A DNA stretch of 64,000 bases, from the NCBI GenBank assembly GCA_964562235.1, contig CAZLSV010000014.1:15984-79983 (forward strand). Direction: 5' to 3'. Each line of letters starts with the position of its first letter. Position 1 is the first letter of the stretch. This document shows positions 735 through 52,507 of this stretch, one piece after another. A program made the translations under genes and the position numbers. The DNA is from an uncultured Desulfatibacillum sp. (GTDB lineage: Bacteria > Desulfobacterota > Desulfobacteria > Desulfobacterales > SpSt-501). The notes beneath the pieces were generated by a model. The model ran no database searches, was not told the DNA's origin, and was given only the letters and a program-made list of their open reading frames with translations.

Positions 735-931
735 TGCCAACGGATCCCCCCCTGCCAGCGCCGGTGAACCGCCCCGTCCCCCACCGGGTCCACCGGGCCG
801 CATAGGGTCCCACCGTCGGCCGCGTCGGTCCGGCAAGCCCCGAATCCCGATGATTTCCCAAAGCCGGCCTTTCCTAACGCGCAGGGATGGCTTATAGTCA
901 CCGTGTGGGAAACAGGAAGAGGAACTGGAAA

Positions 932-2437
932 ATGATTCGGAAAAGCATATCTCTATTGGCCGCGCTTTCCGCCGGCCTGACGATGAGCGCGGCGGCCCTG
1001 GCCGCCGAGACCCAAACCCCGCTCGTCCGGCTGGTCAAAAAAATCCAACCGGCGGTCTCGACCGTCATCGCCTATGACATCGAACGCAACATCGGGAACA
1101 TCGGAACGGGTTTTTTCGTCAGCCCGCAGGGCCATTTGATCACCAATTTCCACGTGCTGGCCGGCCGGTACGCCGCCGACGTCCGCACCGCCGCCGGCAA
1201 GTCCTACCGGGTCAAGGCCGTGCTGGCGGAGAACAAGGCCGCCGACCTGGTGAAATTGGAAGTGGACATCCCCCCGGAAGAGGTCTCCTGGATCCCGCTG
1301 GACGACCGCGTGCCGGAAATCGCCGAACGGGTGGTCGTCGTCGGCAGCCCCATGGGCCTTGAGCAGACGGTCAGTGACGGGATCGTCTCCTCGGTGCGGG
1401 ATATCCCGCCGGTCGGCACCGTTTTCCAGATGTCCGCCCCCATCTCCCCCGGTTCCAGCGGCAGCCCGGTCGTCAGTATGAAGGGGCGGGTGGTCGGTAT
1501 CGCCACGTTCCAGTTCGTTCAGGGGCAAAACCTGAATTTCGCCGTAACCTCACTGCAGATCCAGTCCCTGCAAAAATTCGACTCCGCCAAAACAATCCCG
1601 GAATGGGGCTACGGCCACCTGGGAAACAAGCCGAGAGCGGCCGAGGCCCTGTGCCAGAAAGGCTTCAGCTTTTCCGTCAACGGCGAGGATCAAAAAGCAC
1701 TTGAGTATTTCAAGAAGGCGACCGAATCCGACCCCTCGGATTCAGAGGCCTGGAGCGGCCTGGGATCCTGTTACGCCGGCCTCAACAACCCGGATAGCGC
1801 CATCGCCGCTTACAAACAGGCCGTTGAGGCCAGCCCGCGGGAAGCCGCCTCCCATTTCCACCTCGGCAACTATTACGGCAAGCTCGGCCGTTTCGAGGAA
1901 GCCGTCGGCGCCTACCGCGAAGCGATCGTCCTCAACTCCCGGTTCGAGGCCGCCTACTACAACATGGGACTCGCCCTGACGCGGCTGGGCCGCTTCGACG
2001 AGGGACTGGAGGCGTTCGAAAACGTCACGCGCATCAACCCGGACGCGGCACCGGCCCATTATAACGCCGGCATCGCTTACAGCCAGCTGGGCCACTTCAA
2101 GGAGGCGGTCAACGCCCAGCGAAACGTCATCCGCCTGAACCCGGATTTCGCACCGGCCTACTTTGCCATGGGCGAGGCCTTCTACCGCCTCGGCCGCGAA
2201 GCAGAGGGCGTCGACGCTTTCCGGGAGGCGATCCGCGTGGACCCGGATTTCGCACCGGCGCACCATATCCTGGGGACCGTCATGCTTCACAAAGGGGACA
2301 AAAGCGGCGCGCTCGAGCAGTTCAAGATCCTGAAGAAACTGGACGCGGAGATGGCTCAGAACCTTTTCGAACAGATCTATCCCAAAGATGACCCTGCCAA
2401 AAAACCTAAAAGAGCTGCCAAGCAGCCGAAACCATAA
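932..2437 (+). CDS. Secreted trypsin-like (S1/DegP-type) serine protease fused to C-terminal TPR repeats
   Basis: ATG at 932 follows AGGAAGAGGA. The N-terminus has a signal-like segment (MIRKSISLLAALSAGLTMSAAALA). Triad-like motifs are ITNFHVL, AADLVKLEV and GSSGSPVV. Five or six 34-aa TPR units follow (AWSGLGSCYAGLNNPDSAIAAYKQAVE..). Confidence 0.8.
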   Translation: MIRKSISLLAALSAGLTMSAAALAAETQTPLVRLVKKIQPAVSTVIAYDIERNIGNIGTGFFVSPQGHLITNFHVLAGRYAADVRTAAGKSYRVKAVLAENKAADLVKLEVDIPPEEVSWIPLDDRVPEIAERVVVVGSPMGLEQTVSDGIVSSVRDIPPVGTVFQMSAPISPGSSGSPVVSMKGRVVGIATFQFVQGQNLNFAVTSLQIQSLQKFDSAKTIPEWGYGHLGNKPRAAEALCQKGFSFSVNGEDQKALEYFKKATESDPSDSEAWSGLGSCYAGLNNPDSAIAAYKQAVEASPREAASHFHLGNYYGKLGRFEEAVGAYREAIVLNSRFEAAYYNMGLALTRLGRFDEGLEAFENVTRINPDAAPAHYNAGIAYSQLGHFKEAVNAQRNVIRLNPDFAPAYFAMGEAFYRLGREAEGVDAFREAIRVDPDFAPAHHILGTVMLHKGDKSGALEQFKILKKLDAEMAQNLFEQIYPKDDPAKKPKRAAKQPKP

Positions 2438-2885
2438 CTGCTTCGGTTGCAGCCCCACGAACCCCTCCGGCCTGCGGATGCGGTTCCTTACGGACGGTGA
2501 GGCCGTTTACTCGCGGGTCAAAGTCCCTGAGCACCTCTGCGGCTGGAGCAACATCGTCCACGGCGGCGTGCTCACCACCATTTTGGATGAAATCATGAGC
2601 TGGTCGGCCATCCACCTGCTCAAGCGCATTGCGCTGACCCAAAACATCGCCGTCGAGTTTCTCAAGCCGGTCCATGTGGGCGGGGAACTTCGGGCCGAAG
2701 GCCGCATCCTGGAGATTAGCTCAAAGAACGACGCCTTCACGGAGGGCGCGCTCTACGACTCACGGGGGGAGCTCTGCGTCCGGTCGAAAGCGGGTTTCAA
2801 GGTGTTCTCCCCCGCGGTCGCGCGCCGCCTGGGCATCGCCGACAACGAAACCATTTCGTGGTTCGAAGGAATTTTCAAGGCATGA
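2388..2885 (+). CDS. PaaI-family / hotdog-fold thioesterase
   Basis: The N-terminal NHNCFGCSPTNPSGLRMRF and the VHGGVLTTILDEIMSW core are typical of PaaI-like hotdog thioesterases. The gene overlaps the 3' end of the protease gene by 50 nt. Confidence 0.7.
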   Translation: MTLPKNLKELPSSRNHNCFGCSPTNPSGLRMRFLTDGEAVYSRVKVPEHLCGWSNIVHGGVLTTILDEIMSWSAIHLLKRIALTQNIAVEFLKPVHVGGELRAEGRILEISSKNDAFTEGALYDSRGELCVRSKAGFKVFSPAVARRLGIADNETISWFEGIFKA

Positions 2886-3018
2886 AATGAAACCACGGCC
2901 GCGCCCGGCTTTATTGGACCATCACGGCAGGAATGAAAAGGGCGGTCGAGATGTCGGTTTCCCGGCAGCACGCACACGACGTGATCACACGGGATGCCGG
3001 CGGCTTCCGCGGTGCGTT

Positions 3019-3522
3019 ATGCGTCTCTGGACGCTTCATCCCAAATACATGGACCCGCGCGGTCTGGTCGCGCTCTGGCGGGAGGGGCTGCTGGCCCAGG
3101 CGGTCCTGAACGGCCGGACCCGCGGCTACACCCGCCATCCCCAACTCAATCGCTTTCGGGGCTCCCCCTCGCCCGCGGAAGCCATTGCCCTCTACCTGCG
3201 CGCGATTCATGCCGAATCCTGTCGAAGGGGCTACTGTTTCGATGCCGCCAGAATCGGACCCGCCGGCCGGGTCGAACCGATCGCGGTCACGCGCGGGCAG
3301 CTCGGCTACGAATGGGCCCACCTGCAGGCCAAGCTGAGGGCCCGGTCCCCGGAGTGGCTGGTCCGGTTGAAATCGATATCTTCCCTTAAACCGCACCCTC
3401 TGTTTCGCATCGTCCCCGGCCCGGTGGCGGAGTGGGAGGTGCTTGAGACGGGCAAAAGGCTTCCGCCACAGCAGGGGCGATCCGCCCTGCGTTTAACCGG
3501 AAAAGCCGTGAAAAAAATGTGA
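3019..3522 (+). CDS. Pyrimidine-dimer DNA glycosylase family protein (T4 endonuclease V-like)
   Basis: The internal ATG at 3019 gives MRLWTLHPKYMDPRGLVALWREGLLAQAVLNGRTRGYTRHPQLNRF, the characteristic N-terminus of this family. The upstream part of ORF 2674..3522 is Arg/Ser-rich alternate-frame noise over the thioesterase gene. Confidence 0.65.
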   Translation: MRLWTLHPKYMDPRGLVALWREGLLAQAVLNGRTRGYTRHPQLNRFRGSPSPAEAIALYLRAIHAESCRRGYCFDAARIGPAGRVEPIAVTRGQLGYEWAHLQAKLRARSPEWLVRLKSISSLKPHPLFRIVPGPVAEWEVLETGKRLPPQQGRSALRLTGKAVKKM

Positions 3523-4278: not shown

Positions 4279-4444
4279 ATCCGTCCCGTCTCCCGAAAGT
4301 CGCGCAAGACGCTTTGCCGGGCTTTTCCAATCATGGGCGACAGCCTCTTTTTTGGGCTGGAAGCGATGCGCTCGTTGTATTATGATTCGTTGAAACTGTT
4401 TATTGGCCGGAGTATTGAAAATCCATTTCGACAAGGAGGTCGCT

Positions 4445-4978
4445 ATGCGTCTCAGCGCCAAGAAAATCGCATTTCTGGTGGCCGAGGGGGTCGAGGACCT
4501 GGAATTTTACGTGCCCCTCATGCGTCTTCAGGAGGAAGGGGCGGAGGCCATCGTCGCCGGCCTGGACCTCAAGTCCGTCCGTGGAAAAAACGGGCTGGAA
4601 ATCACTCCCACCGCACGCATTGACTCGCTTCAGAGCGGCGATCTGTTCGCCCTGGTGGTGCCCGGAGGGTGGGCGCCCGACAAACTGCGCCGCTACGCCG
4701 CGGTCAAAAAGCTGGTCCAGGAGATGGACGCTTCCCAAAAAACGCTGGGGTTCATCTGCCACGGAGGGCATGTCGCTATTTCCGCCGGGATCGTGCAGGG
4801 CCGGCGGGCCACCGGCACGCTGGCCATCAAGGACGACCTTGAAAATGCGGGCGCCACGTGGGTGGAGGAACCCGCGTTCCGCGAGGGGCATTTCGTCTGG
4901 GGCCGGGTGGTGGCCGACATTCCGGCGTTCTGCCGCGAGTTGGTTGCCGCGCTGGTGGAGCAGGCGGGACGCGGATAA
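4445..4978 (+). CDS. DJ-1/PfpI family protein
   Basis: AAGGAGG precedes the ATG at 4445. Motifs are KKIAFLVAEGVEDLEFYVP and the Cys-His elbow GFICHGGHV. Confidence 0.8.
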   Translation: MRLSAKKIAFLVAEGVEDLEFYVPLMRLQEEGAEAIVAGLDLKSVRGKNGLEITPTARIDSLQSGDLFALVVPGGWAPDKLRRYAAVKKLVQEMDASQKTLGFICHGGHVAISAGIVQGRRATGTLAIKDDLENAGATWVEEPAFREGHFVWGRVVADIPAFCRELVAALVEQAGRG

Positions 4979-5257: not shown

Positions 5258-7018
5258 TCAGCCGCCGGCGGCGGCCTCGGCCATGCGCAGCACCGCCTGT
5301 AGCTGGGCGCGCAGCGGGTGCTCCGCCAGCCCGTCCACCGCCGCCATCTCTAGCTGCAGCCGATCGAGGGCGCGGGCCGTGATGCGCTCGGGACCCGCCG
5401 TCAGGCGGATGAGAGCCTGCAGCGCCAGAAAGCTCAGCATCAGCGCAATGGCGATGACCCAGAACGCGTGCAGGAAATAATCCCCGGCGAGATACTCCGC
5501 GCTGAAAAACGTCTTCACGGTGACCCAGCCCACGTAGCCCAGGATGCCGGTGACCGGCGCATTCATCAGAATCTGCAGCCACCCCCCACCGAGGCGCCGG
5601 GCCATGGCGTCGACCTCCTGCTCGATGGCCCGGTCCCAGAGGCTCGAGAGCTGCTCCTGGAACCGGCCGGCCGATGCCATCGGCGCGTCGAGGCTCCGCA
5701 CGGCCGAATCGAAACGCCCGCGGACCAGCAGCTCAGCCGCCTCCGGCCAGCGTCCGATCAGTTCGAGCCGGTACCGCCCGAGCGCCGCTTCGAGGCCGTC
5801 GGCCCCCGCCGGCGCCGATCCCTTGCCCGCTCGCCGGACAGAAAACACCCCCCCGAACGGGCGGCCCAGGCGTAAAAAAGCGGCGATACCGCTGCCGGCG
5901 GCCATCAGGCGCGTCCAGACCGCCAGCACCCATCCCACCGGGCCGACCCACCGCATGCAAAGCTTCTGGTACACCGCGGCCCCCGGGCCGCCGGCTCCCC
6001 GCCGGGAGTCCTGACCCCCCAGCGCCGCGGCGGCGGCCGTCATCGCTTCCGTCTGGATCCGCGCCAGCGCCTGCTGCGCGGCCTGGAGCGCCGGCCGGTC
6101 CGCCGCGAGCTCGCGGCCGGCCTCGTCCAGAACGACCGCATGCAGCTTGCGGGCGTTGTCCACGCGCCGGTCGACCACGAGACTCCCACGGCCCGCGAGT
6201 CCGAACACCAGGCTGCGCAACTCCTCGAACTGATCGAAGTCGTGGCGCGGACCGGCCAACGGGTCCCAGGCCGGCGCCTGCAGGTGCCGGCGCGCACAGA
6301 CGCACAGCGCCCGGTCGACCGCCCCCTGCCATCCCTCCTGCAGGTAGCCGCGGAAGTCGGGCAGAATGTTCTCCTTCAGATCCGCCTCCTCCAGGCGGTC
6401 GCACTTGTTGAGGACCGCCACGAGAGACTCGCCGTCGAAGCGCGCCACGAACGGCGCCAGAAAATCCGCGTGATCGCGGCGCTTGGGGTTTTCGGCATCG
6501 AAGACGCAGATCAGCACGTCGGATTGGGCGATGGCGCGCTCCAGCGCAGGGACGTGGCGACGGAAGGCCGTGGAGTCGGTGTCGGGGGTGTCGATCAGGC
6601 ACAGCCCCCCGGGCAGGCGCGTGCCTGCCGCGGCCGCGACGACGACCGAATCGCTGCCGAGGTCGCGGGTGAGCTCCGCCGCGTCCTCCTTGCCGGCGCC
6701 GAAGACCACCAGCGTTTCGGTGGTCGGCCGGCGGCGGCCCGTCGGCGAGAGCTCCGCCCCTCCCGCCAGCGCATTGACGAGGGTGGACTTGCCGGACCCG
6801 GACGGGCCGATCAGCGTCACCACGAGGCTGCGCTCGAAGCGGGCGGCGATCGCGCGGATCATCCGGATGGCCTCCTCGCCTTGCCGGGCCAGCGCGGCGG
6901 CAGGCCGCCACAGCGGCACCGCCTCCAGGCTGGATTTCAGCAGGCCGAGCTCGGAAACCAGGGCCTCGATGCGCCCGACGCCCTTGAGAATCGCCGCGCG
7001 CTGCTCGCCTCTCCTCAC
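5258..7018 (-). CDS. Membrane-associated P-loop GTPase, downstream member of a paralogous pair (dynamin-like/HSR1-like)
   Basis: G1 is GPSGSGKST, G3 is LIDTPDTD and G4 is LNKCD. The C-terminal half has hydrophobic segments (VGPVGWVLAVWTRLMAAGSGIAAFL; FLHAFWVIAIALMLSFLALQALI). Its GTG start overlaps the upstream gene's stop as GTGA (7015-7018). Confidence 0.7.
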   Translation of the reverse strand: MRRGEQRAAILKGVGRIEALVSELGLLKSSLEAVPLWRPAAALARQGEEAIRMIRAIAARFERSLVVTLIGPSGSGKSTLVNALAGGAELSPTGRRRPTTETLVVFGAGKEDAAELTRDLGSDSVVVAAAAGTRLPGGLCLIDTPDTDSTAFRRHVPALERAIAQSDVLICVFDAENPKRRDHADFLAPFVARFDGESLVAVLNKCDRLEEADLKENILPDFRGYLQEGWQGAVDRALCVCARRHLQAPAWDPLAGPRHDFDQFEELRSLVFGLAGRGSLVVDRRVDNARKLHAVVLDEAGRELAADRPALQAAQQALARIQTEAMTAAAAALGGQDSRRGAGGPGAAVYQKLCMRWVGPVGWVLAVWTRLMAAGSGIAAFLRLGRPFGGVFSVRRAGKGSAPAGADGLEAALGRYRLELIGRWPEAAELLVRGRFDSAVRSLDAPMASAGRFQEQLSSLWDRAIEQEVDAMARRLGGGWLQILMNAPVTGILGYVGWVTVKTFFSAEYLAGDYFLHAFWVIAIALMLSFLALQALIRLTAGPERITARALDRLQLEMAAVDGLAEHPLRAQLQAVLRMAEAAAGG

Positions 7019-8937
7019 CGGACCCCTCCCTTTGTTTCCCGTGCCAGGCAGCCGTCGGCGGCGGCGATCCCCCGTTCGGCGTCGCCGGCCGCCTCTTCCA
7101 ACGCTCGCAGTATCTCGCCCGTGATCTCCTGCTCGAAAATTTCACGGAGGATTTCGAATTTGCGGTTCAGCCAGGTTTGGGCCACCGGCCCGAGCATCTC
7201 CTGGAGCTGCTTCCGGTCCGCCTGCTTCAGCCCGCGGGTGACCGGAATGGCCACCAGGGCGTAAAGATCTTTCAGGCCGAAAAGCCCGGCCAGCTTGACT
7301 TTGATGGTGGCGCCGCCGACGGGGTCCCCGGTCGAGAGGACGTAGGTCACCGCGGCGGCCGCCGGCAGCACGTTCAAGAAGGCCCAGAAGGTCTGCGAGA
7401 CCTGGTCCCAGACCCCCATCCGGCGGCGGAAATGCCCGGCCAGGCGGCTGAGCTCCGCCTCCATGTCGGCGCCGACCTCGCCGATCTCCTCCCGGCGGTC
7501 GAGGATGGCCTGCAGGATGGCGCTGAAATCTTTTTGCTCCAGCCGCTTTCGACTCGGCAAGGCCGCGGGGTGCGCGCTTATCGCACCCGGCGGCTGCGCG
7601 TCGCCGGCTTCAGTCCCCGCGCCCGGTGCGATATGCGGGCTCAGCACCTGCTGATGCAGGTCGGTGGCCGCCGTCACCAGGTTTTCCTCGAGCTTGCGGG
7701 CAAACAGCCGGGAGGGCTTTTCGGACGGCGGCTCTCCGGAAACCCTCGCGCGCGCCCAGCCCGCGACCCCGACCAGGGCCTTCAAGGGCAGCTCGATCAG
7801 GCTGCCCGTGCGCCGCATGAACTTGACCGCCGGCGGGTCGGTCCGCGCCCAGATCTTGGCAAACCGCCGCATGACGCGTTCCACCGGGAAGTGCCGCAGC
7901 GCCTGCTGGAGAGACCGGTTTTGCACCTCCCGCACGCCGGCCGCGTAGCGTTTCAGCTCGGCCAGGGACTCCCGGCCGCGGCCCAGGAACACCTCCGCCT
8001 GCGCCATGACATCGGAGAGCATGGAGGCGTGCAGCTCCCGGCGCAGCCGGGTCGCGTCGATCGCCGCCAGGGCCTGCTCGAAGGAGGCCCCTTCCGGCCG
8101 CACCGGCTGAAGGCGGAGGCCGCGCTCGCCGGCCGCGACGCGGTTGTCCTCCTCGGCCCGGAAGACCCCGAGCACACACTCCTTGGCCGAACCGCCGTAA
8201 AGGTTTCGGGCCACGGTCGCGGCGTGCTCTTCCACCTCCGCGGCCGTGAAGCTCGGGTAGCAGCGGTAGACGAGAAAGCATTTGCGGCGGCCGATGCCGG
8301 TCAGCATCCGGCCGATGAAGTCGGTGTTGTCGCGGTTGTTGTAGTTGGAGTTGGTGAAGATGTAGATCAGGATATCGGCCGCCTCGAGGGCGGCCTGGGC
8401 GCTGGAGCGGTTGGCGTAGTGCCCGCGGCTGCCGGTGTCGAAATCGGGGGTGTCCATTAGAACCAGCGGCGGGGCGCCCGGACCGGTTTCGATGAAAAGC
8501 GGGCCCCCGGGCTCGAGGAGCTCCTCCGGCTGCCGCAGCGCTTCCGGGGCGGCCCCGAAAGGCTCCACCAGCGCCGCGATGAATCCGGATTTTCCGGCCA
8601 TCGTCCCGGGGACCGAGAAAAGCACGCGCCGGTTCATGCCCGCCCGCCCTCCGACGGGCGCGAATCGGCCGCCGGCGAGGGAGTTGAAAAGGGTGGACTT
8701 TCCGGAAGAGCCCCCGCCGCAGATCGCGGCCACCAGCGGGAAATCCGGGTCGAAGCGGCTCAGCAGGCGGCTGTCCAGGGTCTTGCACCAGGCGGCGAGC
8801 TCCGGGGCGGCCTCCAGCTTCAAGGCATCCGCCAGAAGGGGCAATTCCAGGCGAAGCGTTTTCAGCCTCTCATGCAAAGAGGCCGGCACGCCCATGCCCA
8901 CCGCCGCGGTATCGGAAACATTCATGAACGACAACAT
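7015..8937 (-). CDS. P-loop GTPase, upstream member of the paralogous pair (dynamin-like candidate)
   Basis: The start was re-set to the ATG at 8937 (alternative 8925). The longer 891-aa ORF runs antisense over the neighbouring dehydrogenase gene. G1 is CGGGSSGKST and G3 is LMDTPDFD. There is a long helical middle and a hydrophobic hairpin near the C-terminus (FWAFLNVLPAAAAVTYVL..LYALVAIPV). Confidence 0.65.
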   Translation of the reverse strand: MLSFMNVSDTAAVGMGVPASLHERLKTLRLELPLLADALKLEAAPELAAWCKTLDSRLLSRFDPDFPLVAAICGGGSSGKSTLFNSLAGGRFAPVGGRAGMNRRVLFSVPGTMAGKSGFIAALVEPFGAAPEALRQPEELLEPGGPLFIETGPGAPPLVLMDTPDFDTGSRGHYANRSSAQAALEAADILIYIFTNSNYNNRDNTDFIGRMLTGIGRRKCFLVYRCYPSFTAAEVEEHAATVARNLYGGSAKECVLGVFRAEEDNRVAAGERGLRLQPVRPEGASFEQALAAIDATRLRRELHASMLSDVMAQAEVFLGRGRESLAELKRYAAGVREVQNRSLQQALRHFPVERVMRRFAKIWARTDPPAVKFMRRTGSLIELPLKALVGVAGWARARVSGEPPSEKPSRLFARKLEENLVTAATDLHQQVLSPHIAPGAGTEAGDAQPPGAISAHPAALPSRKRLEQKDFSAILQAILDRREEIGEVGADMEAELSRLAGHFRRRMGVWDQVSQTFWAFLNVLPAAAAVTYVLSTGDPVGGATIKVKLAGLFGLKDLYALVAIPVTRGLKQADRKQLQEMLGPVAQTWLNRKFEILREIFEQEITGEILRALEEAAGDAERGIAAADGCLARETKGGVR

Positions 8938-8973
8938 AATACGCCTGGGCTGAAATAAAACCGAATGCCCCTT

Positions 8974-9090
8974 GTTATTGCTCCGACAAACAGGTTCAAC
9001 GTGAACCGGCGCCTGGCGGATCGGGGCGTCCGCCGCGGCGCCTCTGCGTGAGGTGCCGAATTGGCACATAATCAACCGCCGGTGTAATAG
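8974..9090. repeat. Palindromic intergenic element, copy 1 of the GTTATTGCTCCG family
   Basis: The terminal arms TTATTGCTCCG (8975-8985) and CGGTGTAATAG (9080-9090) pair with 1 mismatch and 2 G:T wobbles. Internal hairpins are GTTCA-ACG-TGAAC and GGCGGA..TCCGCC. It shares its 12-mer with 45050-45061. Confidence 0.5.
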
Positions 9091-9183
9091 CACACCCTCC
9101 CGCTGAAGACCATCCCGCCCCCGTTGCGAGGGCGGAAGCTTTTGTGATAAAGACCCCACCAGGGTCAACCGAAGGGGGCATGC

Positions 9184-10371
9184 ATGAAAAGACTCTCCCG
9201 CACCGGGTGCCGGGTGCTGCTCGCTCTGACCGTGGTGCTCATCGGCCGCGCGGGAGCCTACGACCTTCTGCCCTGGATGAAATCGCGTCTCTTTCCCGCG
9301 GATGTGCCCTTCCTGGAATCGACCTCCGGCACCTTCCGCGTGGAGGTCCTCGCCGAGGGGCTGGTAAGTCCCTGGGCCGTCGTCCCGGCGCCCGACGGGC
9401 GGATCTTCATCACCGAACGCCCGGGCCGACTGCGGGTGGTGGAGAATGGGAGGTTGTCCCCCGCCCCGGTGCCCGGGGTGCCGGAGGTGGCCTACCAGGG
9501 CCAGGGCGGCCTGCTCGACATGACCCTGCACCCGGACCATGCGCTCAACCGCCGGGTCTACCTGGCGTACACCGTGGCTACCGACAAGGGCTTGATGACC
9601 CGTGTGGCCCGTTTTGAAGAGACTCCCGACGGATTGAAAGACATGCATGTCGTCTTTCAGGGTTTCCCCGGAAGCGACCTGCCGAAACACTTCGGGTGCC
9701 GTATCCGTTTCGGCGCGGACCGCAGGCTTTACATAACCCTCGGGGAGCGCGGCGAAGGGAATAGAGCACAGGACCTGATGGATCTCAACGGCAAAACCCT
9801 GCGCCTGAACGACGACGGCACGGTTCCGGCCGACAACCCGTTTGCCGGCCGAAGCGACGCGCGGCCCGAAATTTTCACGTACGGAAACCGGAACTCACAA
9901 GGGATGGCCGTCCATCCGGAGACCGGTTGGATTTTTCAAACCGAGCACGGCCCCTCCTGGAACGACGCCCCCGGCGGGGGCGACGAAGTGAACCATATCG
10001 TTGCCGGCGGCAACTACGGCTGGCCGCTCGTGCATCACCGCGGCACGCGCGCGGGCACCATCGCCCCCCTGGCGGAGTACACCCCGGCAATCGCTCCGGC
10101 CGGTTGTATGTTCTACACGGGTGCGGCCTTCCCGGCCTGGAAGGGTGATTTCTTCTTCGCCAACCTGGTCGGGAAAATGCTCGTGCGCCTGAAGCTCGAT
10201 GAAACCAACATCGTCGGGCAGGAGCATCTGTTGAAAGCGGCTTTCGGCAGGCTGAGAGATGCCGCCCAGGGACAGGACGGTTCGATCTACATCATCACTT
10301 CGGACACGGATGCCTACGGCCCCGGTCGCGCCGGCGGCGACCGGCTGCTGCGGCTTTTGCCGACGAAATAG
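9184..10371 (+). CDS. PQQ-dependent (soluble) sugar dehydrogenase, beta-propeller, with a signal peptide
   Basis: Motifs are GLLDMTLHPD, YGNRNSQGMAVHPETGWIFQTEHGP and GGDEVNHIVAGGNYGWP. The N-terminus is a signal sequence (MKRLSRTGCRVLLALTVVLIGRAGA). Confidence 0.8.
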   Translation: MKRLSRTGCRVLLALTVVLIGRAGAYDLLPWMKSRLFPADVPFLESTSGTFRVEVLAEGLVSPWAVVPAPDGRIFITERPGRLRVVENGRLSPAPVPGVPEVAYQGQGGLLDMTLHPDHALNRRVYLAYTVATDKGLMTRVARFEETPDGLKDMHVVFQGFPGSDLPKHFGCRIRFGADRRLYITLGERGEGNRAQDLMDLNGKTLRLNDDGTVPADNPFAGRSDARPEIFTYGNRNSQGMAVHPETGWIFQTEHGPSWNDAPGGGDEVNHIVAGGNYGWPLVHHRGTRAGTIAPLAEYTPAIAPAGCMFYTGAAFPAWKGDFFFANLVGKMLVRLKLDETNIVGQEHLLKAAFGRLRDAAQGQDGSIYIITSDTDAYGPGRAGGDRLLRLLPTK

Positions 10372-10385
10372 GAAGGATTCGAGTC

Positions 10386-11753
10386 GTGAATTTCACGCCC
10401 CTTTTCAAACCCCGCAGCATCGCCGTTGCGGGCGTGTCGCTCGCCAACGACCGCCACCCCGCCAACGTGATCTACAACAAGATCCACCTGCGCTACCCGG
10501 TCAAGGTCTACCCGGTGAACCCGAAGGGCGGTGTTTTCAAGCGCGACCGCGTCTACCGGGGAATGGAGGAGATCCCCGGACCCGTCGATCTGGCCGTAAT
10601 CGCCGTGCGCGCCGATTTCGTGCCGGAAACGCTCGCCCAGTGCATCCGCAAGGGGGTGGGCGGCGCGGTGATCATCTCCGGCGGTTTCGCCGAAAGCGGC
10701 CGGCCGGACCTGCAGGAGCGGATCACCGCAATGGCCCGGGAGGCGGAGTTCCCTTTCATCGGGCCCAACTGCCTCGGCATCTACTCGCCGGGAAAATTCG
10801 ACACGTTTTTCCTGCCGGGCGAGCGCCTGGTGCGGCCGAACCCGGGCAGCGTGGGGTTCGTCAGCCAGAGCGGCGGCGTGCTGGTCGATCAGATGGTGAA
10901 GTTTGCCGAACAGGGACTGGGGCTCTCGCTCGCGGTCAGCATCGGCAACAAGGCCTTGATCCGTGAAACCGATCTGCTGCGCTACCTCGCCGAAGACCCG
11001 GCTACTAAGGTCATCGCCTTCTACGTGGAAGGCTTCGGCCGCGGTGAAGGGCGCACCTTTGTGGAGCTGGCGGCCGGCTGCCGAAAACCGGTGGTCGTGC
11101 TCAAGGCCGGCAAGACCCTGGAAGGCAGCCGCGCCGTGAGCAGCCACACCGCATCGCTGGCCGGCGACTACAAGGTGTTCTCCGATGTGCTCGCCCAGTA
11201 CGGCATCGTAGAGGCCCGCAACGAGTTCGAACTCACCTGCTTCTGCGAATCGCTCAACCACTACCCTCGCGCCATCGCGGGCAAGGTCGGGGTCATCACC
11301 GTGAGCGGCGGCCACGGCGCCCTGGCCACGGACATCTGCGCCGACCTGGGACTGCAAGTGCCGCGGCTTTCGGAGGCGGTCAGAGCCGAGATCCGGGCCG
11401 GCCTCTCGGCCAACGTCCGCGACATCGCCTCCCTGGAGAACCCGATCGATCTGACGGGCAGCGCCGTCGACGAGGATTTCGAAGCGGCCGTCGGCGCGCT
11501 CGGCCGGGCGCCCGAGGTGGACTGCCTGCTGCTCCTGCTGCTGCCTTACTCCCCGGGGATCAGCTCCGATCTCGGTGCCCGGCTGAGCTATGTGCACCAG
11601 CAGACCGGCAAGCCGCTGGTCGCCTATGTGCCGCACATCGAAAAATACCGGATTCTGTTCGAGGGCTTCGAACTGAACAACGTACCGGTCGCCTCCTCCA
11701 TCGACGGGGCGGTCTTCATGGTGGAAGCCATGCGGAGGTGCAGGCCATGCTGA
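10386..11753 (+). CDS. ADP-forming acetyl-CoA synthetase family, alpha subunit (CoA-binding plus succinyl-CoA-synthetase-like flavodoxin domains)
   Basis: GTG start after AGGAAGGA. Motifs are PRSIAVAGVS, GPNCLGIYSP, GFVSQSGG and the SHTASLAG phosphohistidine-loop-like motif. Confidence 0.8.
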   Translation: MNFTPLFKPRSIAVAGVSLANDRHPANVIYNKIHLRYPVKVYPVNPKGGVFKRDRVYRGMEEIPGPVDLAVIAVRADFVPETLAQCIRKGVGGAVIISGGFAESGRPDLQERITAMAREAEFPFIGPNCLGIYSPGKFDTFFLPGERLVRPNPGSVGFVSQSGGVLVDQMVKFAEQGLGLSLAVSIGNKALIRETDLLRYLAEDPATKVIAFYVEGFGRGEGRTFVELAAGCRKPVVVLKAGKTLEGSRAVSSHTASLAGDYKVFSDVLAQYGIVEARNEFELTCFCESLNHYPRAIAGKVGVITVSGGHGALATDICADLGLQVPRLSEAVRAEIRAGLSANVRDIASLENPIDLTGSAVDEDFEAAVGALGRAPEVDCLLLLLLPYSPGISSDLGARLSYVHQQTGKPLVAYVPHIEKYRILFEGFELNNVPVASSIDGAVFMVEAMRRCRPC

Positions 11754-12433
11754 GCCAGGAACTGATGAACATTGTCGATGCCGGCCGCGAACACGGATGG
11801 GTGCTGGAGCCGGAGGCCCTGCGCCTGCTGCGGGCCTCCCATGTTCCGGTCCCCCGGTTCGCATGGGCCCGGTCGAAAACCGAGGCGCTCGCCGCGGCGG
11901 CCGCCATCGGCTTCCCGGTGGTCGCCAAGGTGGTGTCCCCGCAGGTCCTGCACAAGTCCGATGTGCAGGGGGTCCAGCCCGGCGTCCCGGACCCGGAGAG
12001 CCTGGCCCGGGTCTATGACCGGTTCGGCGCGCTGCCCGGTTTTGAAGGGATGCTCGTCGCCGAAATGCTCTCGGGACACGAGCTCATCGTCGGCGCCAAG
12101 ATCGACTACCAGTTCGGACCGGTGATCCTGCTCGGGATCGGCGGCACGGCCGTCGAAATCTACAAGGACACGGTCACGCGCATGGCGCCGCTCAAGCCGC
12201 GCGACGCCGAATCCATGCTCACCTGCCTGCGGGGCAGCCGACTGCTCACGGGCCACCGGGGCTTTGCCGCCGTCAACATTCCGAAACTGACCGAGATGAT
12301 GCTCGCCTTCTCGGGTCTCGTCATGGAACTCGCCGACCGGATCGACTCCATCGACCTCAACCCCGTGTTCTGCTCTCCGGAGCGCTGCACGGTCGCCGAC
12401 GCACGGATTATCTTGGCCGATAATGCAAAGTGA
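11747..12433 (+). CDS. ADP-forming acetyl-CoA synthetase family, beta subunit (ATP-grasp domain)
   Basis: The ATG at 11747 follows GGAGG and overlaps the alpha-subunit stop (ATGCTGA). The ATP-grasp-like sequence is GFPVVAKVVSPQVLHKSDVQGV..GMLVAEM..DLNPV. Confidence 0.75.
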   Translation: MLSQELMNIVDAGREHGWVLEPEALRLLRASHVPVPRFAWARSKTEALAAAAAIGFPVVAKVVSPQVLHKSDVQGVQPGVPDPESLARVYDRFGALPGFEGMLVAEMLSGHELIVGAKIDYQFGPVILLGIGGTAVEIYKDTVTRMAPLKPRDAESMLTCLRGSRLLTGHRGFAAVNIPKLTEMMLAFSGLVMELADRIDSIDLNPVFCSPERCTVADARIILADNAK

Positions 12434-12558
12434 TGATCCAGTATTTCATGAGCGCGGAATGATGAACATGGGGAAAGGCTGATTGAGAGATAATGGACCT
12501 GCGGCGGCTCCGGAATCGACCGTACAATCTTGATGCACCCCGAAGGTTGGGGACCGTG

Positions 12559-12891
12559 TCACTCAAAAACTTTTCGAATCTGTCGTTCCAGTTCGGGGAT
12601 GTTCTTCACAATGGTTTCCCAAACCCGGTCAAGATCAATCGTGTCATATTCATGGATCAGCACATTTCTCAAACCTACGATTCCGCTCCACGGAATCTCC
12701 GGGTAGTGACCGCGAAAATCATCCGGGAGCCTATTGGCCGCCTCTCCGATCACTTCGAGACGCCGAATCACTGCATCCTGTTTTTCCGATGAAGCCATGA
12801 AGTCGGCTCTGCTCAATCCAAAAGTGTACTTTTGAATCGCCTTGATGGAGTCGTAGATATCATCGATATGCACCAAAGGGTCTTTTTTCAT
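12559..12891 (-). CDS. hepT: HepT-like (DUF86) ribonuclease toxin of a type VII toxin-antitoxin pair
   Basis: The Rx4HxY active-site motif is in GLRNVLIHEYDTIDLDRVW. The protein is 110 aa, overlaps the upstream nucleotidyltransferase gene by 4 nt, and has visibly lower GC than its neighbours. Confidence 0.85.
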   Translation of the reverse strand: MKKDPLVHIDDIYDSIKAIQKYTFGLSRADFMASSEKQDAVIRRLEVIGEAANRLPDDFRGHYPEIPWSGIVGLRNVLIHEYDTIDLDRVWETIVKNIPELERQIRKVFE

Positions 12892-13193
12892 AAGATCCGG
12901 CGGCTTTCCTTTAGAACCCGGTCTTTGAGACGAGGCTTCAAATAATCCCTTGAAACCAAGTCAACTTTAACGCCCAAGATGCTCTCTAGTTCATTTTTGA
13001 GACCCACAACATCCAACAGGCTGACATCGTCACGGTACTTGACTAAAAGGTCTAAATCGCTCAGGGAACTGGCATCTCCCCTTGCGATGGACCCAAACAC
13101 CGATGCCTCAACAACGCCGCGGTTCATTAATACGGGAACGATGCGTTGGGCGATCTCATGGATTTCGATATTCATGCCTACACCCCTATTCAA
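12888..13193 (-). CDS. mntA: MntA-like minimal nucleotidyltransferase antitoxin
   Basis: The GSxxRG..DxD motif is in FGSIARGDASSLSDLDLLV. The protein is 101 aa and sits directly upstream of, and overlapping, the HepT gene. Confidence 0.85.
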   Translation of the reverse strand: MNRGVGMNIEIHEIAQRIVPVLMNRGVVEASVFGSIARGDASSLSDLDLLVKYRDDVSLLDVVGLKNELESILGVKVDLVSRDYLKPRLKDRVLKESRRIL

Positions 13194-13255
13194 AAGGGAA
13201 GAACAGCATTTCAGAAAAAATAGCAGATACCTGAATCTTAAGCAATAGAGCGAGA

Positions 13256-14173
13256 ATGGACAAGATGATCAAACAACCAGCCGGGGATTTTCCCAAAAAC
13301 ATCTTACCGTACCTGATTCTCAGCGTCGCCCCGCTTTGCTGGGCGGGGAACATCGTGCTGGCCCGGGGCGTGGCGGAGCTCATCCCGCCGGTGGCCTTCG
13401 CCTTCTGGCGCTGGACCCTCGCCTTCGCGCTGATCCTGCCCTTCACGCTGCGGCAGCTCGCCCGGGACCGCAGGGAGATCGGCCGGCGCTGGAAGATGAT
13501 GTTTTTACTTTCCCTCCTGGGGATATCGAGCTTCAACACGCTGCTTTACACCGCGGTCCACACCACCACCGCCATCAACGGCGCCCTGATCCAGTCCATT
13601 ATGCCCGCGGTGATCGTGCTGCTGAGCCTGATGCTCTATCGGGAAAAGATCGCATCGCGCCAGCTGGCCGGCGTGGTGCTGTGCATCCTGGGCGCCGCCC
13701 TGATCGTGCTGCGGGGGGATCTGAAGACGCTTCTGGCCATGTCCTTTGTGCAAGGCGACCTGCTCATGGTCATCGCCGTTTCGGTCTATGGGCTCTACTC
13801 CGTGCTGCTGCGCCGGCGCCCGGCCATCCACCCCTTGAGTTTTCTGACCGCCACGTTTGCCTTGGGCGCCGCCGGTCTTTTCCCGGCTTACCTGGCGGAG
13901 CTGGCCGTCACCGGCCCGTTCGCACCCGGCCGGGACATCGTATTGAGCATCCTGTACGTGGCCGTCTTCCCCTCCATCGTCGCCTATTTCTGCTGGAACA
14001 GGGGAGTGGAGCTGGTCGGCCCCAACCGGGCCGGACTCTTCATCAACCTGATCCCGGCCTTCGCCTCGCTGCTGTCCGTCGGCCTTTTGGGCGAGTCGAT
14101 CCAGCTCTATCACATCGGCGGCATGGGGCTCATCGCCGGCGGAATGGCGCTGTTTTATCTGGTCAACGCCTGA
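13256..14173 (+). CDS. DMT-superfamily (EamA-like) transporter
   Basis: About ten hydrophobic helices and a duplicated EamA-like architecture across 305 aa. Confidence 0.8.
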   Translation: MDKMIKQPAGDFPKNILPYLILSVAPLCWAGNIVLARGVAELIPPVAFAFWRWTLAFALILPFTLRQLARDRREIGRRWKMMFLLSLLGISSFNTLLYTAVHTTTAINGALIQSIMPAVIVLLSLMLYREKIASRQLAGVVLCILGAALIVLRGDLKTLLAMSFVQGDLLMVIAVSVYGLYSVLLRRRPAIHPLSFLTATFALGAAGLFPAYLAELAVTGPFAPGRDIVLSILYVAVFPSIVAYFCWNRGVELVGPNRAGLFINLIPAFASLLSVGLLGESIQLYHIGGMGLIAGGMALFYLVNA

Positions 14174-14589
14174 AGGATGCACCCGGTTCATTGACGCGAA
14201 TCGATTATACATCAACCCCATCGGACCGGCGCGAGCTGCTCCATCACAATTCAATCCCGGGAAGTAACGGTTCATTTTCGACCGAGGCCTGATTTTCAGG
14301 TCCCTACCATAATCCCCGCCGAGCAACCAATGTCGGGCCTCGCGGCCACGCGTCGACAACCGCAACATGATGGTCGTATTTACCCGCTCGCTATCCAACC
14401 GTTTTTCCATGCGATAAGCAGCATAAAATTAGCTTGCGCACGCTTACACCAACATCGAACGTTTACATAAATAGTTGTAATCGCTAACATATTTAACATT
14501 AAAGGAGAAAATAAAGATTGACTTTTTTTATGCCTCGAAAGAAAATCGCCCGGGAATTGATTATAAACCGAAACGGATGGGAGGGCAAA

Positions 14590-14961
14590 ATGAGAGCGGC
14601 GAAACTGATTCCTTCGTGTCTGCTGATCGGTGCTGCGGTGGCGTTGTTCATTTCGGGTTGCGGCGATTCGGGTGGCAGCGACATGTCCAACCTCAGCGGG
14701 GCATGGCAAGATCCTTCGACGAAGCAAAAATTTCAGATTGACTTCAGCAATAACAAAACCATCATTACTTTCGGTGACGCCATTTTACCGGCCACGATTA
14801 AACCACTCACATCGGACAGCTATTCGGTGCGTGTTTCAGACAAGGGCTCGGGGGAGAAGGAGTGGAAACTTTCCCGAGTTTGGGACGACAAGAAAAAATC
14901 CTTCACGCTGAAACTCGAGCACGACAGCGCGACATCCAATTTAGAGCGCGTAAAGATTTAA
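14590..14961 (+). CDS. Small lipoprotein of unknown function
   Basis: The ATG at 14590 gives MRAAKLIPSCLLIGAAVALFISGCGDSGG, which contains the lipobox ISGC. The gene is lower in GC. No recognisable domain. Confidence 0.5.
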   Translation: MRAAKLIPSCLLIGAAVALFISGCGDSGGSDMSNLSGAWQDPSTKQKFQIDFSNNKTIITFGDAILPATIKPLTSDSYSVRVSDKGSGEKEWKLSRVWDDKKKSFTLKLEHDSATSNLERVKI

Positions 14962-14996
14962 CCCTCCGAGTGCCTGTCACACCTCAAACCAAAATC

Positions 14997-15027
14997 AAGG
15001 ACCGGGTCGACAAGCTCGGTCCTTTTT
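14997..15027 (+). terminator. Rho-independent terminator candidate downstream of the lipoprotein gene
   Basis: Stem AAGGACCG (14997-15004) pairs with CGGTCCTT (15017-15024) around a 12-nt loop. A T-run follows (CCTTTTTCC). Confidence 0.5.
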
Positions 15028-15227
15028 CCTCGCCCGTTCGCCATTGCGGCTGCGTCCATCCCATGAAACGCATTCGGAATTAGACCCGCCCCCCGACACC
15101 GCCGGACGCCCGTGGTGTCATATGAAACCCTGCGTCTTCCGCGCTGGTGACCCCGCTGGTAACCCATGGATAAGGGCGGCGTCGCCGCCGGCACGCCTTG
15201 ATAGGAAGGCGGCCTCGAGCGAACGTT

Positions 15228-16241
15228 TCAAGGCGGCTGCGCCAGGAACGTCGCGAGGCCTTCTACCAGCGCGGCCATGAAGCGGAAGTCGAGGGTTTCC
15301 ATCCTGTCGGTGGGCAGGTGGTAGTGGGGGTTGCGAAAGAAGGCGGAGTCCGTGATCATCACGGCCTGGAATCCCTGGTCCCAGAACGAGGCGTGGTCGC
15401 TCAAACGCACGGCCGGCATGATCCAGCCGTTGAAGGGCACGGTCAGTTTGACAACCGCCAGGTCCGGGTTTTTCTGGAAACTGTCGGAGATGCTCCCGGC
15501 CAGAGCGCGCGAAGCGAAGTTGCCCACGATCCCGATGAAATCGCCCTCCTTGGGGTAGCCGAAAAACATCAGCGGAAACGGGTAGGACTGGCAGCCCGGT
15601 TCGCGGCAGGTGTAGCCGACCATCTCCAGGCACAGCATGGCGTCGATGCGTTCGTTCCGCCGCCGGGCCTGCCTCGCGTAGACCCGGCTTCCCATGAACC
15701 GCGTGCCGTAGGCCGGCGGCTCTTCGAGGGCAAAGGAGACGAACACGACGGACAAACCGAGATTCTTGTCGCGGCTCAACGCCGCTATCTGCCGCGCGGT
15801 TTCAAGCTGCACGGCCACGGCGCTGGCGTTGTCGTCGGCGCCGACGGTGCCGGCGACCGAGTCGTAGTGGGCACCGATCAGGATCCGCCGGGCGGGGCTG
15901 GGGCCGAAACGGACCTCGGCGACGACATTGGCAACCTCGAAGCCTTGACAGTCATAATGCTCCAGGCGCGCCTCGATCCCGTTCCCCTTGTAGAAATCCC
16001 GGATGTACTCCGCCGTCTTGGTGAGGTTGCCCGGAACCCGGACGCTGCGCTCTCCGATCTCTACCGTAAGCGCCCGGAGGTGGTTTCTCAACCGGGCTTC
16101 CGTTGCGGGAATGTCGACCATCGCCGCCGCTCCCCAAGCGCGTGTGTCCCCGGCATGCAGGCTACCGGCCTCGATGTCCGGCAGGACAAATCGGCCCAGC
16201 GCAAACGCCAGGCATGCAATCATGTAGACCCTAATGCGCAT
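15228..16241 (-). CDS. M28-family metallopeptidase (aminopeptidase)
   Basis: Signal-like N-terminus. M28-type metal-ligand contexts are IGAHYDSV, GADDNASAVA and SFALEEPP. There is a late SDHASF motif. Confidence 0.75.
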   Translation of the reverse strand: MRIRVYMIACLAFALGRFVLPDIEAGSLHAGDTRAWGAAAMVDIPATEARLRNHLRALTVEIGERSVRVPGNLTKTAEYIRDFYKGNGIEARLEHYDCQGFEVANVVAEVRFGPSPARRILIGAHYDSVAGTVGADDNASAVAVQLETARQIAALSRDKNLGLSVVFVSFALEEPPAYGTRFMGSRVYARQARRRNERIDAMLCLEMVGYTCREPGCQSYPFPLMFFGYPKEGDFIGIVGNFASRALAGSISDSFQKNPDLAVVKLTVPFNGWIMPAVRLSDHASFWDQGFQAVMITDSAFFRNPHYHLPTDRMETLDFRFMAALVEGLATFLAQPP

Positions 16242-51649: not shown

Positions 51650-52507
51650 ATGATAAGATGCCGAAAAATGAAAACGACGCAGTGCGCCGTGCCGGTTCGG
51701 CGATCCGGGTTTGTTTCGAGGCTTCTTGAACGCCTGATTCAGCTCGTGGGCGTGATGGGGTTCTGGAAAGGCTATTCCGCCCGCCGTCTGGCCAAGGTCA
51801 TCGAAGCCCACCAGCTGTGGTTCAGCTCCCGCCAGAAGCAGGGCAGCCGGGCCATCCTGAGCGACGCCCACCTGAAAGGCGTGAACCTGGCGGAAACCGA
51901 CCTGCGCGGCGCGGATCTGAGCCGGGCCAGTCTGAACCTGAGCCTCATGAACATGGCCGACCTCCGGGAGGCCGACTTGAGCAGCGCGAATCTGCAGAAA
52001 GCCCAAATGCGCGACACCGACCTGCGCGAAGCCAACCTGAGCCAGGCCCACCTGGCCGATGCGGATCTGACCCGTTCCAACCTGATCATGGCCAACCTCA
52101 GCCGGGCCATGATGGAAGGGTGCATCCTGAGAGAGGCCAATCTCTTCCGCGCCTACCTCAAGGGGACCGACCTCGGCCGCGCCGACCTGCGGGGGGCCGA
52201 CCTGCGGGAGACCAATTTGAGCCAGACGGACCTGCGCAACGCCGATTTGAGCCATGCCAACCTGATAATGGCCAACCTGAGTCTGGCCAACCTGAACACG
52301 GCGGACCTCAAGCACGCCAACCTTTTTCGGACCTATCTCCGCCGGGCGGACCTGCAGCGCGCCGACCTGCGGGGCGCGGATCTGTCCGGGACCAACCTGC
52401 GCGAGGCCAACCTGAAGGGCGCGTTGCTCGACCCCGATCAACTGGCGTCGGCCATCCTCGACGAGACCACCGTCCTGCCGGACGGGTCCAACCCGAAGAA
52501 CAACTGA
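51650..52507 (+). CDS. Pentapeptide-repeat protein
   Basis: About 35 consecutive A(D/N)LxX pentapeptides (..AHLKGVNLAETDLRGADLSRASLNLSLMNMADLREADLSSANL..). The start is ATG 51650 or 51668. Confidence 0.8.
   Translation: MIRCRKMKTTQCAVPVRRSGFVSRLLERLIQLVGVMGFWKGYSARRLAKVIEAHQLWFSSRQKQGSRAILSDAHLKGVNLAETDLRGADLSRASLNLSLMNMADLREADLSSANLQKAQMRDTDLREANLSQAHLADADLTRSNLIMANLSRAMMEGCILREANLFRAYLKGTDLGRADLRGADLRETNLSQTDLRNADLSHANLIMANLSLANLNTADLKHANLFRTYLRRADLQRADLRGADLSGTNLREANLKGALLDPDQLASAILDETTVLPDGSNPKNN

Follow-up and report, generated by a model that had tools for sequence, protein, structure and literature searches.

Organization of the gene pair

The 64,000-nt stretch of DNA analyzed here (the window) is part of contig CAZLSV010000014.1 (assembly GCA_964562235.1) from an uncultured Desulfatibacillum sp. 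Its minus strand carries two adjacent genes, gene A and gene B, which the original prediction had described as a translationally coupled pair of paralogous, membrane-associated GTPases and as candidate dynamin-like proteins (DLPs). Positions are those of the window. The features of the pair are listed below.

7015..8937, minus strand: gene A, the divergent subunit, encoding a 640-aa dynamin-like protein
8152..8736, minus strand: GTPase (G) domain of A (about residues 68–262), placed by the secondary-structure order of the model (b1–P-loop–a1 ... b6) and by the Dynamin_N and MMR_HSR1 matches
7237..7392, minus strand: hydrophobic hairpin of A (residues 516–567, FWAFLNVLPAAAAVTYVLSTGDPVGG...LFGLKDLYALVAIPVT), nearly invariant
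7023..7030, minus strand: Shine-Dalgarno-like GGGAGGGG within the 3' end of A, 4 nt before the GTG of B, read from the sequence
7015..7018, minus strand: GTGA overlap, the stop of A on the start of B
5258..7018, minus strand: gene B, the near-canonical subunit, encoding a 586-aa dynamin-like GTPase
6284..6829, minus strand: G domain of B (about residues 64–245), placed by Pfam, the model and the alignment to Campylobacter jejuni DLP1 (Cj-DLP1)
5870..5950, minus strand: first hydrophobic segment of B (residues 357–383, WVGPVGW...AAFLRLGRP)
5399..5584, minus strand: transmembrane-grade helical hairpin of B (residues 479–540), its second helix with a family-mean Kyte-Doolittle (KD) value of 2.56
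8938..9183, no strand: intergenic region between gene A and a divergent GSDH-family gene, the presumed promoter region of the two-gene operon

Gene A is contained in the frame 7015–9690 (minus strand) and encodes 640 residues counted from the ATG at 8937. A public collection holds one protein identical to A (640 aa, P0121) and one identical to B (586 aa), and the homologues of A are 630–640 aa long and span 97–100% of it. Therefore, the start of A is fixed at the ATG at 8937. Gene B, an open reading frame (ORF) at 5258–7018 on the minus strand, starts with GTG. The junction reads ...GGGAGGGGTCCGGTGAGG, and the TGA of A (7017–7015) overlaps the GTG of B (7018–7016). The third-position GC content is 0.87 for A and 0.89 for B, compared with about 0.6–0.7 for the overlapping spurious frames, indicating that both frames are coding. 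The original prediction of two overlapping minus-strand genes of about 640 and 586 aa with a GTGA junction thus reads correctly, and the motifs that it quoted are present (CGGGSSGKST and LMDTPDFDTG in A; GPSGSGKST, IDTPDTDS and LNKCD in B). About 1,000 homologous clusters at 90% identity exist for A and likewise for B. The closest named relatives of both are proteins from Desulfobacterales metagenome-assembled genomes (MAGs).

Conservation as a pair

In 11/11 homologous loci, a B-type gene is directly preceded by an A-type gene in the same orientation. Three of these loci come from close relatives (L001–L003) and eight from distant ones (L015–L022); the latter include a Planctomycetota MAG (L015), L016, a 4.77-Mb contig (L017), a Ca. 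Binatia locus (L018), and L019–L022. The two genes are thus conserved as a pair in several lineages. The 4-nt overlap of A and B is found in 6/11 loci, and the remaining loci have gaps of 5–75 nt. The two proteins diverge in parallel from those of the window (r=0.997 of normalized bit scores, a value driven by two locus groups). A conserved third gene was looked for across the loci, and none was found.

A profile of the B family matches 120 clusters (50% identity) at E≤1e-30 and 1,021 at E≤1e-10, with the full-length architecture kept down to about E=1e-25. A contig scan with the B-family alignment gave, among the matches listed, only P-loop-level similarity in L004–L014, and the ORFs of L005 and L007 contain no DLP pair.

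Family placement

Pfam Dynamin_N is the top family for both proteins (30.9 bits for A and 36.0 bits for B; gathering score 27), as well as for 24/24 relatives in the A alignment and 24/24 in the B alignment. MMR_HSR1 is barely over its cut-off of 21.9 bits (A 22.0, B 29.8).

AlphaFold2 models were calculated from the 24-sequence alignments (mean pLDDT 73 for B and 70 for A). In both models, two helices at the N-terminus precede a compact G domain, whose strands follow the canonical order; very long helices come after the G domain, and hydrophobic helical hairpins and a C-terminal helix are also present. In Foldseek searches of the PDB, the matches of the B model are led by 5owv_A (8.5e-7) and 2j68 (2.1e-6), with 5oxf_A and 2j69 also found; Drp1, Dnm1, MxA, EHD4, MFN1/2, and Fzo1 are among the further matches. 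The A model matches 2j68 (bacterial dynamin-like protein, BDLP) first (7.8e-6) and 5owv_A second (4.4e-5), then Drp1, MFN2, and IniA (6j73). The top 28 matches of B and the top 20 of A all belong to the dynamin superfamily, with about 270–790 aligned columns. Together with the Dynamin_N scores, this ranking bears out the dynamin-like reading of the original prediction and supports the assignment of both proteins to the dynamin superfamily, BDLP/mitofusin class.

At the sequence level, phmmer aligns B with Cj-DLP1 (5owv) across G3–G4, placing DTPD on DTPG and NKCD on TKAD, and the A profile matches the N-terminal helix and the P-loop of SynDLP. These are the only informative PDB sequence matches; the searches of the PDB, with single sequences as well as profiles, are swamped by P-loop matches to ABC proteins and EF3. 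A tblastn search of plasmids with B gave a single match, to the G domain only, in Nonomuraea.

A placement with Era/EngA-like ribosome GTPases had been named as the alternative. In the profile search, B scores 32.5 bits for Era (cut-off 237) and 26.7 bits for Der (cut-off 306.7), and A scores about 15 bits. In the fold search, Era and Der are listed for A only from about rank 26, with E>0.02. Both families are thus far under their cut-offs, and the dynamin superfamily comes first. A reading as ABC-type ATPases (EcfA2) was rejected as well, the matches being confined to the P-loop.

The two proteins had been called paralogous. This stands for the G domains, which are 33% identical over 144 aa (E=3e-10) and are aligned by hhalign with a probability of 98% over 155 columns. 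It does not extend to the sequences of the C-terminal halves, whose predicted helix layouts are alike but whose sequence similarity is undetectable.

No Pfam or NCBIfam model is specific to either protein. The homologues are named in their sources as 'hypothetical protein', 'GTPase', '50S ribosome-binding GTPase', 'EcfA2', and once as 'dynamin family protein'. The earlier remark that these sequences do not look like a nameable family agrees with the absence of a specific model and with source names that are vague or wrong. Many B-family proteins are named 'energy-coupling factor transporter ATP-binding protein EcfA2' or 'GTPase SAR1 family protein' by JGI, and A-family proteins carry the labels '50S ribosome-binding GTPase' or 'hypothetical'. 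The EcfA2, 50S ribosome-binding GTPase, and SAR1 labels are misleading, resting on P-loop-level similarity.

States of the G motifs

The G1 motif GxxxxGK[ST] is invariant or nearly so in both families (P-loop GGGSSGKST in A and GPSGSGKST in B). The G3 motif reads D-T-P-D in both proteins instead of DxxG, with the Walker-B aspartate retained, and is positioned at the end of strand b3 in both models. D-x-P-D is found in 67/70 full-length B-family representatives (one has DTPG), in all 236 A-family sequences, and in 22/22 proteins of the 11 loci. The DxxG glycine is held to be essential for the GTPase switch; its amide contacts the gamma-phosphate and permits the movement of switch II. A literature search for a 'DTPD' motif in GTPases, or for the A/B subfamily, found nothing. 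With aspartate replacing the switch-II glycine in both subunits, the nucleotide switch is probably unlike that of the described dynamins in detail.

The other motifs differ between the subunits. In B, the switch-I motif RPTT is nearly invariant, and G4, which is NKCD in the window protein, reads N-x-x-D in most family members. Where B has NKCD, A has YRCY, in line with the earlier remark that the upstream protein lacks an obvious NKxD. This position is YR[CVAS]Y in the clade of A and YN.. in the distant clade; NKxD occurs in none. Switch I of A is AGMNRR in its own clade, where the threonine is absent, and GGATRR in the distant clade, where it is present. The non-canonical residues of A are themselves almost invariant, indicating that A is under strong selection and is not decaying.

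B is likely the guanine-specific hydrolyzing subunit, because it keeps G1, the switch-I threonine, and NKCD. A is likely a regulatory or structural partner, because it has no NKxD and, in this clade, no switch-I threonine either. Judging from its motifs, A probably still binds nucleotide phosphates.

Hydrophobic segments

Hydrophobicity was calculated with the KD scale in 19-residue windows and examined across each family. B has three hydrophobic segments, at residues 364–382 (KD 1.65), 483–501 (KD 1.52), and 519–537 (KD 2.56). The last has the same value as a family mean and contains zero charged residues. It pairs with 483–501 over a short conserved loop (YL-GD-F-H), and about 45 C-terminal residues lie beyond the hairpin. 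The segment at 357–383 carries a W-x-G-P-x-G-W motif that is kept in most of the B family.

A has two such segments, at residues 517–535 (KD 1.52) and 549–567 (KD 1.43). In the hairpin formed by residues 517–567, helix 1 is uncharged and helix 2 is amphipathic, with lysine and aspartate residues that are invariant. Residues 511–571 are the sole long low-confidence stretch of the A model (pLDDT<50), yet their sequence is almost invariant. In the A subunits of the distant clade, the hydrophobic segments reach transmembrane grade (KD 2.0–2.4). The hairpin of A is a candidate paddle or re-entrant membrane anchor.

The long helical regions and the hairpin-like hydrophobic segments that had been predicted near the C-termini are helices in the models, and the hydrophobic segments are conserved in each family. 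They do not resemble buried core helices, as B 519–537 is strongly hydrophobic and uncharged and the hairpin of A combines low pLDDT with near-invariance.

Comparison with described dynamin-like systems

Most bacterial DLPs are encoded by two adjacent genes of an operon and work together as heterotypic complexes (PMC6104087). The earlier analogy of A and B to such tandem pairs holds for the pairing as such, but LeoA/B/C, one of the examples given, is not the closest analogue.

The Campylobacter jejuni proteins DLP1 and DLP2 (PDB 5owv/5oxf) form a side-by-side operon pair like A and B, and are 24% identical to each other. They are the best or second-best Foldseek match of both models, at a sequence identity of only 11–15%. 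Among PDB sequences, Cj-DLP1 alone aligns with B across G3–G4, although it has the canonical DTPG and TKAD, unlike B. Cj-DLP1/2 forms a heterotypic 2:2 tetramer that tethers membranes (PMC6104087). The two proteins are cytosolic and bind lipid peripherally via a patch at the trunk tip, not via transmembrane-grade helices as in B (PMC6104087).

BDLP1 of Nostoc punctiforme (PDB 2j68/2j69) is the top Foldseek match of A and ranks 3–4 for B. Its domain order is that of A and B: helices come first, then the G domain and the bundles of the neck and trunk, and the membrane element, close to the C-terminal third, is followed by a helix that runs back. In cyanobacteria, its gene is part of a tandem pair (PMC5827413). 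The paddle of BDLP1 is a transient, nucleotide-dependent attachment (PMC6104087), whereas B has a transmembrane-grade hairpin, a second hydrophobic segment, and D-x-P-D at G3.

Streptomyces DynA/DynB is the nearest described bacterial precedent for a transmembrane-anchored DLP pair, likened here by description only. DynB has two transmembrane segments and recruits its partner DynA (PMC8748795). In contrast to DynA/DynB, both A and B carry hydrophobic hairpins, which are of transmembrane grade in both subunits in the distant clade, and no cell-division context is seen.

Mitofusins, Fzo1, and FZL have the BDLP-class fold, with trunk-tip helices that give permanent membrane anchorage. MFN1, MFN2, and Fzo1 yield the highest Foldseek TM-scores (0.30–0.36 on the query). 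Mitofusin isoforms pair heterotypically. Mitofusins, Fzo1, and FZL belong to eukaryotic organelles and have canonical G motifs, whereas A and B are smaller, with a compact G domain. The anchors of mitofusins, Fzo1, and FZL are transmembrane helices (PMC5827413).

The family of TbMfnL from Trypanosoma brucei has a mass of about 62 kDa, combines a G domain with a coiled coil, and has two consecutive transmembrane segments near the C-terminus in a U-shaped topology; its reported bacterial homologues come from the PVC group, Proteobacteria, and Myxococcota (bioRxiv 10.1101/2023.06.28.546890). B fits MfnL in size and layout (586 aa, G domain 64–245, long helices, hairpin 479–540), a comparison made by description only. 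The B family includes members from Planctomycetota, cf. the MfnL homologues in the PVC group. In the preprint, MfnL is described with 'conserved G1 to G4 motifs', and gene pairs are left unmentioned (bioRxiv 10.1101/2023.06.28.546890), whereas B has D-x-P-D and is paired. Cluster look-ups matched neither MfnL accession numbers nor eukaryotic names.

Neighborhood of the pair

Upstream of the pair, the GSDH-family gene (9184–10371, plus strand) is divergent from gene A, and downstream, a DJ-1/PfpI gene (4403–4978, plus strand) is convergent with gene B. Therefore, the pair is an isolated two-gene operon. The 246-nt intergenic region before gene A shows no sigma-70 consensus promoter. The presumed 5' leader contains a terminator-like hairpin, GGTTCACGTTGAACC, with a T-rich run after it (8993–9007, minus strand), about 56 nt before the start of A. 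The window contains no Rfam families and no tRNAs.

A gene for a Trypsin_2 protease with TPR repeats is separated from the pair by a few genes both in the window (887–2437, plus strand) and in L001 (13687–15183), L002 (11419–12855), and L003 (12692–14188), and it always adjoins a 4HBT thioesterase gene in these four places. In the distant locus L017, a trypsin-PDZ (HtrA-like) gene (11549–12643) directly follows B, and genes for a low-molecular-weight phosphatase and NfeD come next. No such protease is found near the pair in the other seven distant loci, and the proximity of the protease to the pair may be a coincidence.

Some distant loci show other arrangements. In L015 (9449–12213; Planctomycetota), the pair and one unknown gene are followed by a LiaF-like membrane protein, a histidine kinase, and a LytTR response regulator, which is a module of the cell-envelope-stress type, seen in this one locus only. 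In the related loci L016 (4241–6004) and L021 (6001–7857), gene A overlaps the preceding gene by 4 nt (DUF7847 in L016 and Oxidored_molyb in L021), and the pair is flanked by sulfatase and PMT_2 glycosyltransferase genes. The pair may belong to a longer transcription unit in both.

Elsewhere in the window, the ORFs of the 4HBT thioesterase (2388–2885) and of a pyrimidine-dimer glycosylase (2674–3522), both on the plus strand, overlap by 212 nt. The Pyr_excise domain starts only at residue 116 of the longest glycosylase ORF, and the true start of the glycosylase is probably downstream of the longest-ORF start. At 52147–52295, tandem repeats with a period of 15 nt (5 codons) and units such as GCCGACCTC.. 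and GCCAACCTGAGA.. are consistent with the gene of a pentapeptide-repeat (A-D/N-L-x-x) protein. The GC content at 12001–16000 is 0.57–0.58, compared with 0.62–0.71 elsewhere; the stretch may be of different origin or rich in non-coding DNA.

Discussion

We consider it likely that A and B, encoded by a translationally coupled bicistronic operon, are a heterotypic pair of the BDLP/mitofusin class that is permanently embedded in the cytoplasmic membrane. What we infer from the features above is the formation of a heteromer, the hydrolysis of GTP by B, the topology, and a role in membrane remodeling. In the proposed mechanism, the N-terminal helices and the compact dynamin-type G domain of each protein would be followed by long helical bundles that form the neck and trunk, by a hydrophobic hairpin close to the C-terminal third, and by a last helix that runs back towards the G domain. 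At the cytoplasmic face of the inner membrane, A and B would form a heteromer that their hairpins hold in place. B, anchored through its transmembrane-grade hairpin, would bind and hydrolyze GTP. A would bind nucleotide phosphates through its intact P-loop and Walker-B aspartate, without guanine-specific contacts, and may serve as a regulatory or structural partner. Nucleotide-dependent contacts between G domains and hinge movements could then tether, bend, fuse, or reseal the membrane, in analogy to Cj-DLP1/2, DynA, DynA/DynB, and mitofusins. Going by these analogies, the pair would most likely remodel or repair the cytoplasmic membrane.

Several points weigh against this reading. The margin of Dynamin_N is small (4–9 bits over the cut-off), and its best-scoring stretch is mainly the P-loop region. 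The Foldseek TM-scores are low (0.17–0.36), which is expected for elongated proteins with hinges, and the placement therefore rests on ranking and topology, not on rigid superposition. The confidence of the models is moderate (pLDDT 70–73), and the position of the hairpins at the trunk tip is putative. The G3 glycine is absent in both proteins and G2 and G4 are absent in A, so that GTPase activity is not assured even for B. Lastly, the neighboring genes hold no clue to function.

Given the loss of the switch-II glycine, a slow, scaffold-like cycle is a serious alternative. The same fold would then do a different job, as a slow or non-hydrolyzing nucleotide-bound membrane scaffold or a divisome stabilizer, and not as a motor for fusion, fission, or repair. 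D-x-P-D replaces DxxG in 67/70 B representatives and in every A sequence examined, and transmembrane-anchored DynB stabilizes FtsZ rings together with DynA (PMC8748795), as such a scaffold might. However, strong purifying selection has kept G1, RPTT, and N-x-x-D invariant in B, and this speaks for real nucleotide turnover; in addition, no division genes are found near the pair in the window or in the homologous loci. On balance, we regard the scaffolding job as improbable.

There is a slim chance that the pair is an anti-phage defense module of the Eleos type (LeoA/LeoBC, 'dynamins') that senses or counters phage-induced membrane damage and has no housekeeping role. PADLOC matches B to LeoA with 33.3 bits (E=7e-9, residues 57–321) and to LeoBC with 21 bits, but these scores are weak and do not reach beyond the G domain and the first helices, and A shows hardly any match (11.6 bits to LeoA). 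B. subtilis DynA is reported to contribute to phage defense (PMC12998192). The pair itself, however, lies in a neighborhood that is syntenic among Desulfobacterales-like contigs (Trypsin-TPR, 4HBT, Fe-ADH, and ADP-forming CoA ligase), with metabolic or housekeeping neighbors and no mobile or defense genes adjacent to it. A and B are highly conserved (50–85% identity in many MAGs) and diverge in parallel, which looks like vertical inheritance. Their architecture is also unlike that of LeoABC, as both subunits are full-length with hydrophobic hairpins.

It is hardly credible that A and B are ribosome-associated or generic TRAFAC GTPases (Era/Der/YlqF-like) or ABC-type ATPases (EcfA2): MMR_HSR1 slightly over its cut-off, some source names, and P-loop matches to ABC proteins point that way, but the NCBIfam equivalogs (Era, Der, YlqF, HflX, and others) score 7–10 times under their cut-offs, the ABC matches span just about 25–40 residues around the P-loop, no KH domain or second G domain (by Pfam) and no ABC signature region is found, about 350–400 residues of helical bundles and membrane hairpins have no counterpart in Era/Der/YlqF or ABC families, and the Foldseek ranking favors the dynamin superfamily over Era/Der.

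To our knowledge, paired bacterial DLPs are common and few have been studied, namely BDLP1, DynA, DynA/DynB, LeoABC, IniA/C, Cj-DLP1/2, and SynDLP. A paired BDLP operon is thus of a known kind, and the A/B subfamily is undescribed as far as the literature searched shows. A and B depart from the characterized pairs in their catalytic motifs and in the mode of anchorage. The features that bear on mechanism are the predicted permanent, mitofusin-like anchoring by hairpins, the asymmetry between a near-canonical and a degenerate subunit, and the family-wide change of the G3 glycine to aspartate.

A bolder reading is that A and B represent a distinct and widespread lineage of obligate two-subunit, membrane-integral dynamin-like machines with a differently built nucleotide switch, possibly the bacterial sister group of eukaryotic MfnL. 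We put this forward tentatively and think it rather unlikely. If it is true, the switch would be built unlike that of every characterized dynamin, with aspartate for the switch-II glycine and with guanine recognition lost in one subunit. If the sister-group relationship also holds, MfnL, which shapes the mitochondrial inner membrane from the matrix side, would have arisen from half of a bacterial heteropair.

The preferred reading, a heterotypic membrane-anchored pair of the BDLP/mitofusin class, has its own consequences. Together, A and B define a subfamily that has no name and is partly mis-annotated, with members in MAGs that are Desulfobacterales-like or belong to Planctomycetota, Ca. Binatia, and other groups, and a subfamily-specific profile would correct the 'EcfA2' and '50S ribosome-binding GTPase' annotations. 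The pair would also offer a tractable bacterial model of heterotypic transmembrane-anchored dynamins and a natural experiment on the dispensability of the DxxG glycine.

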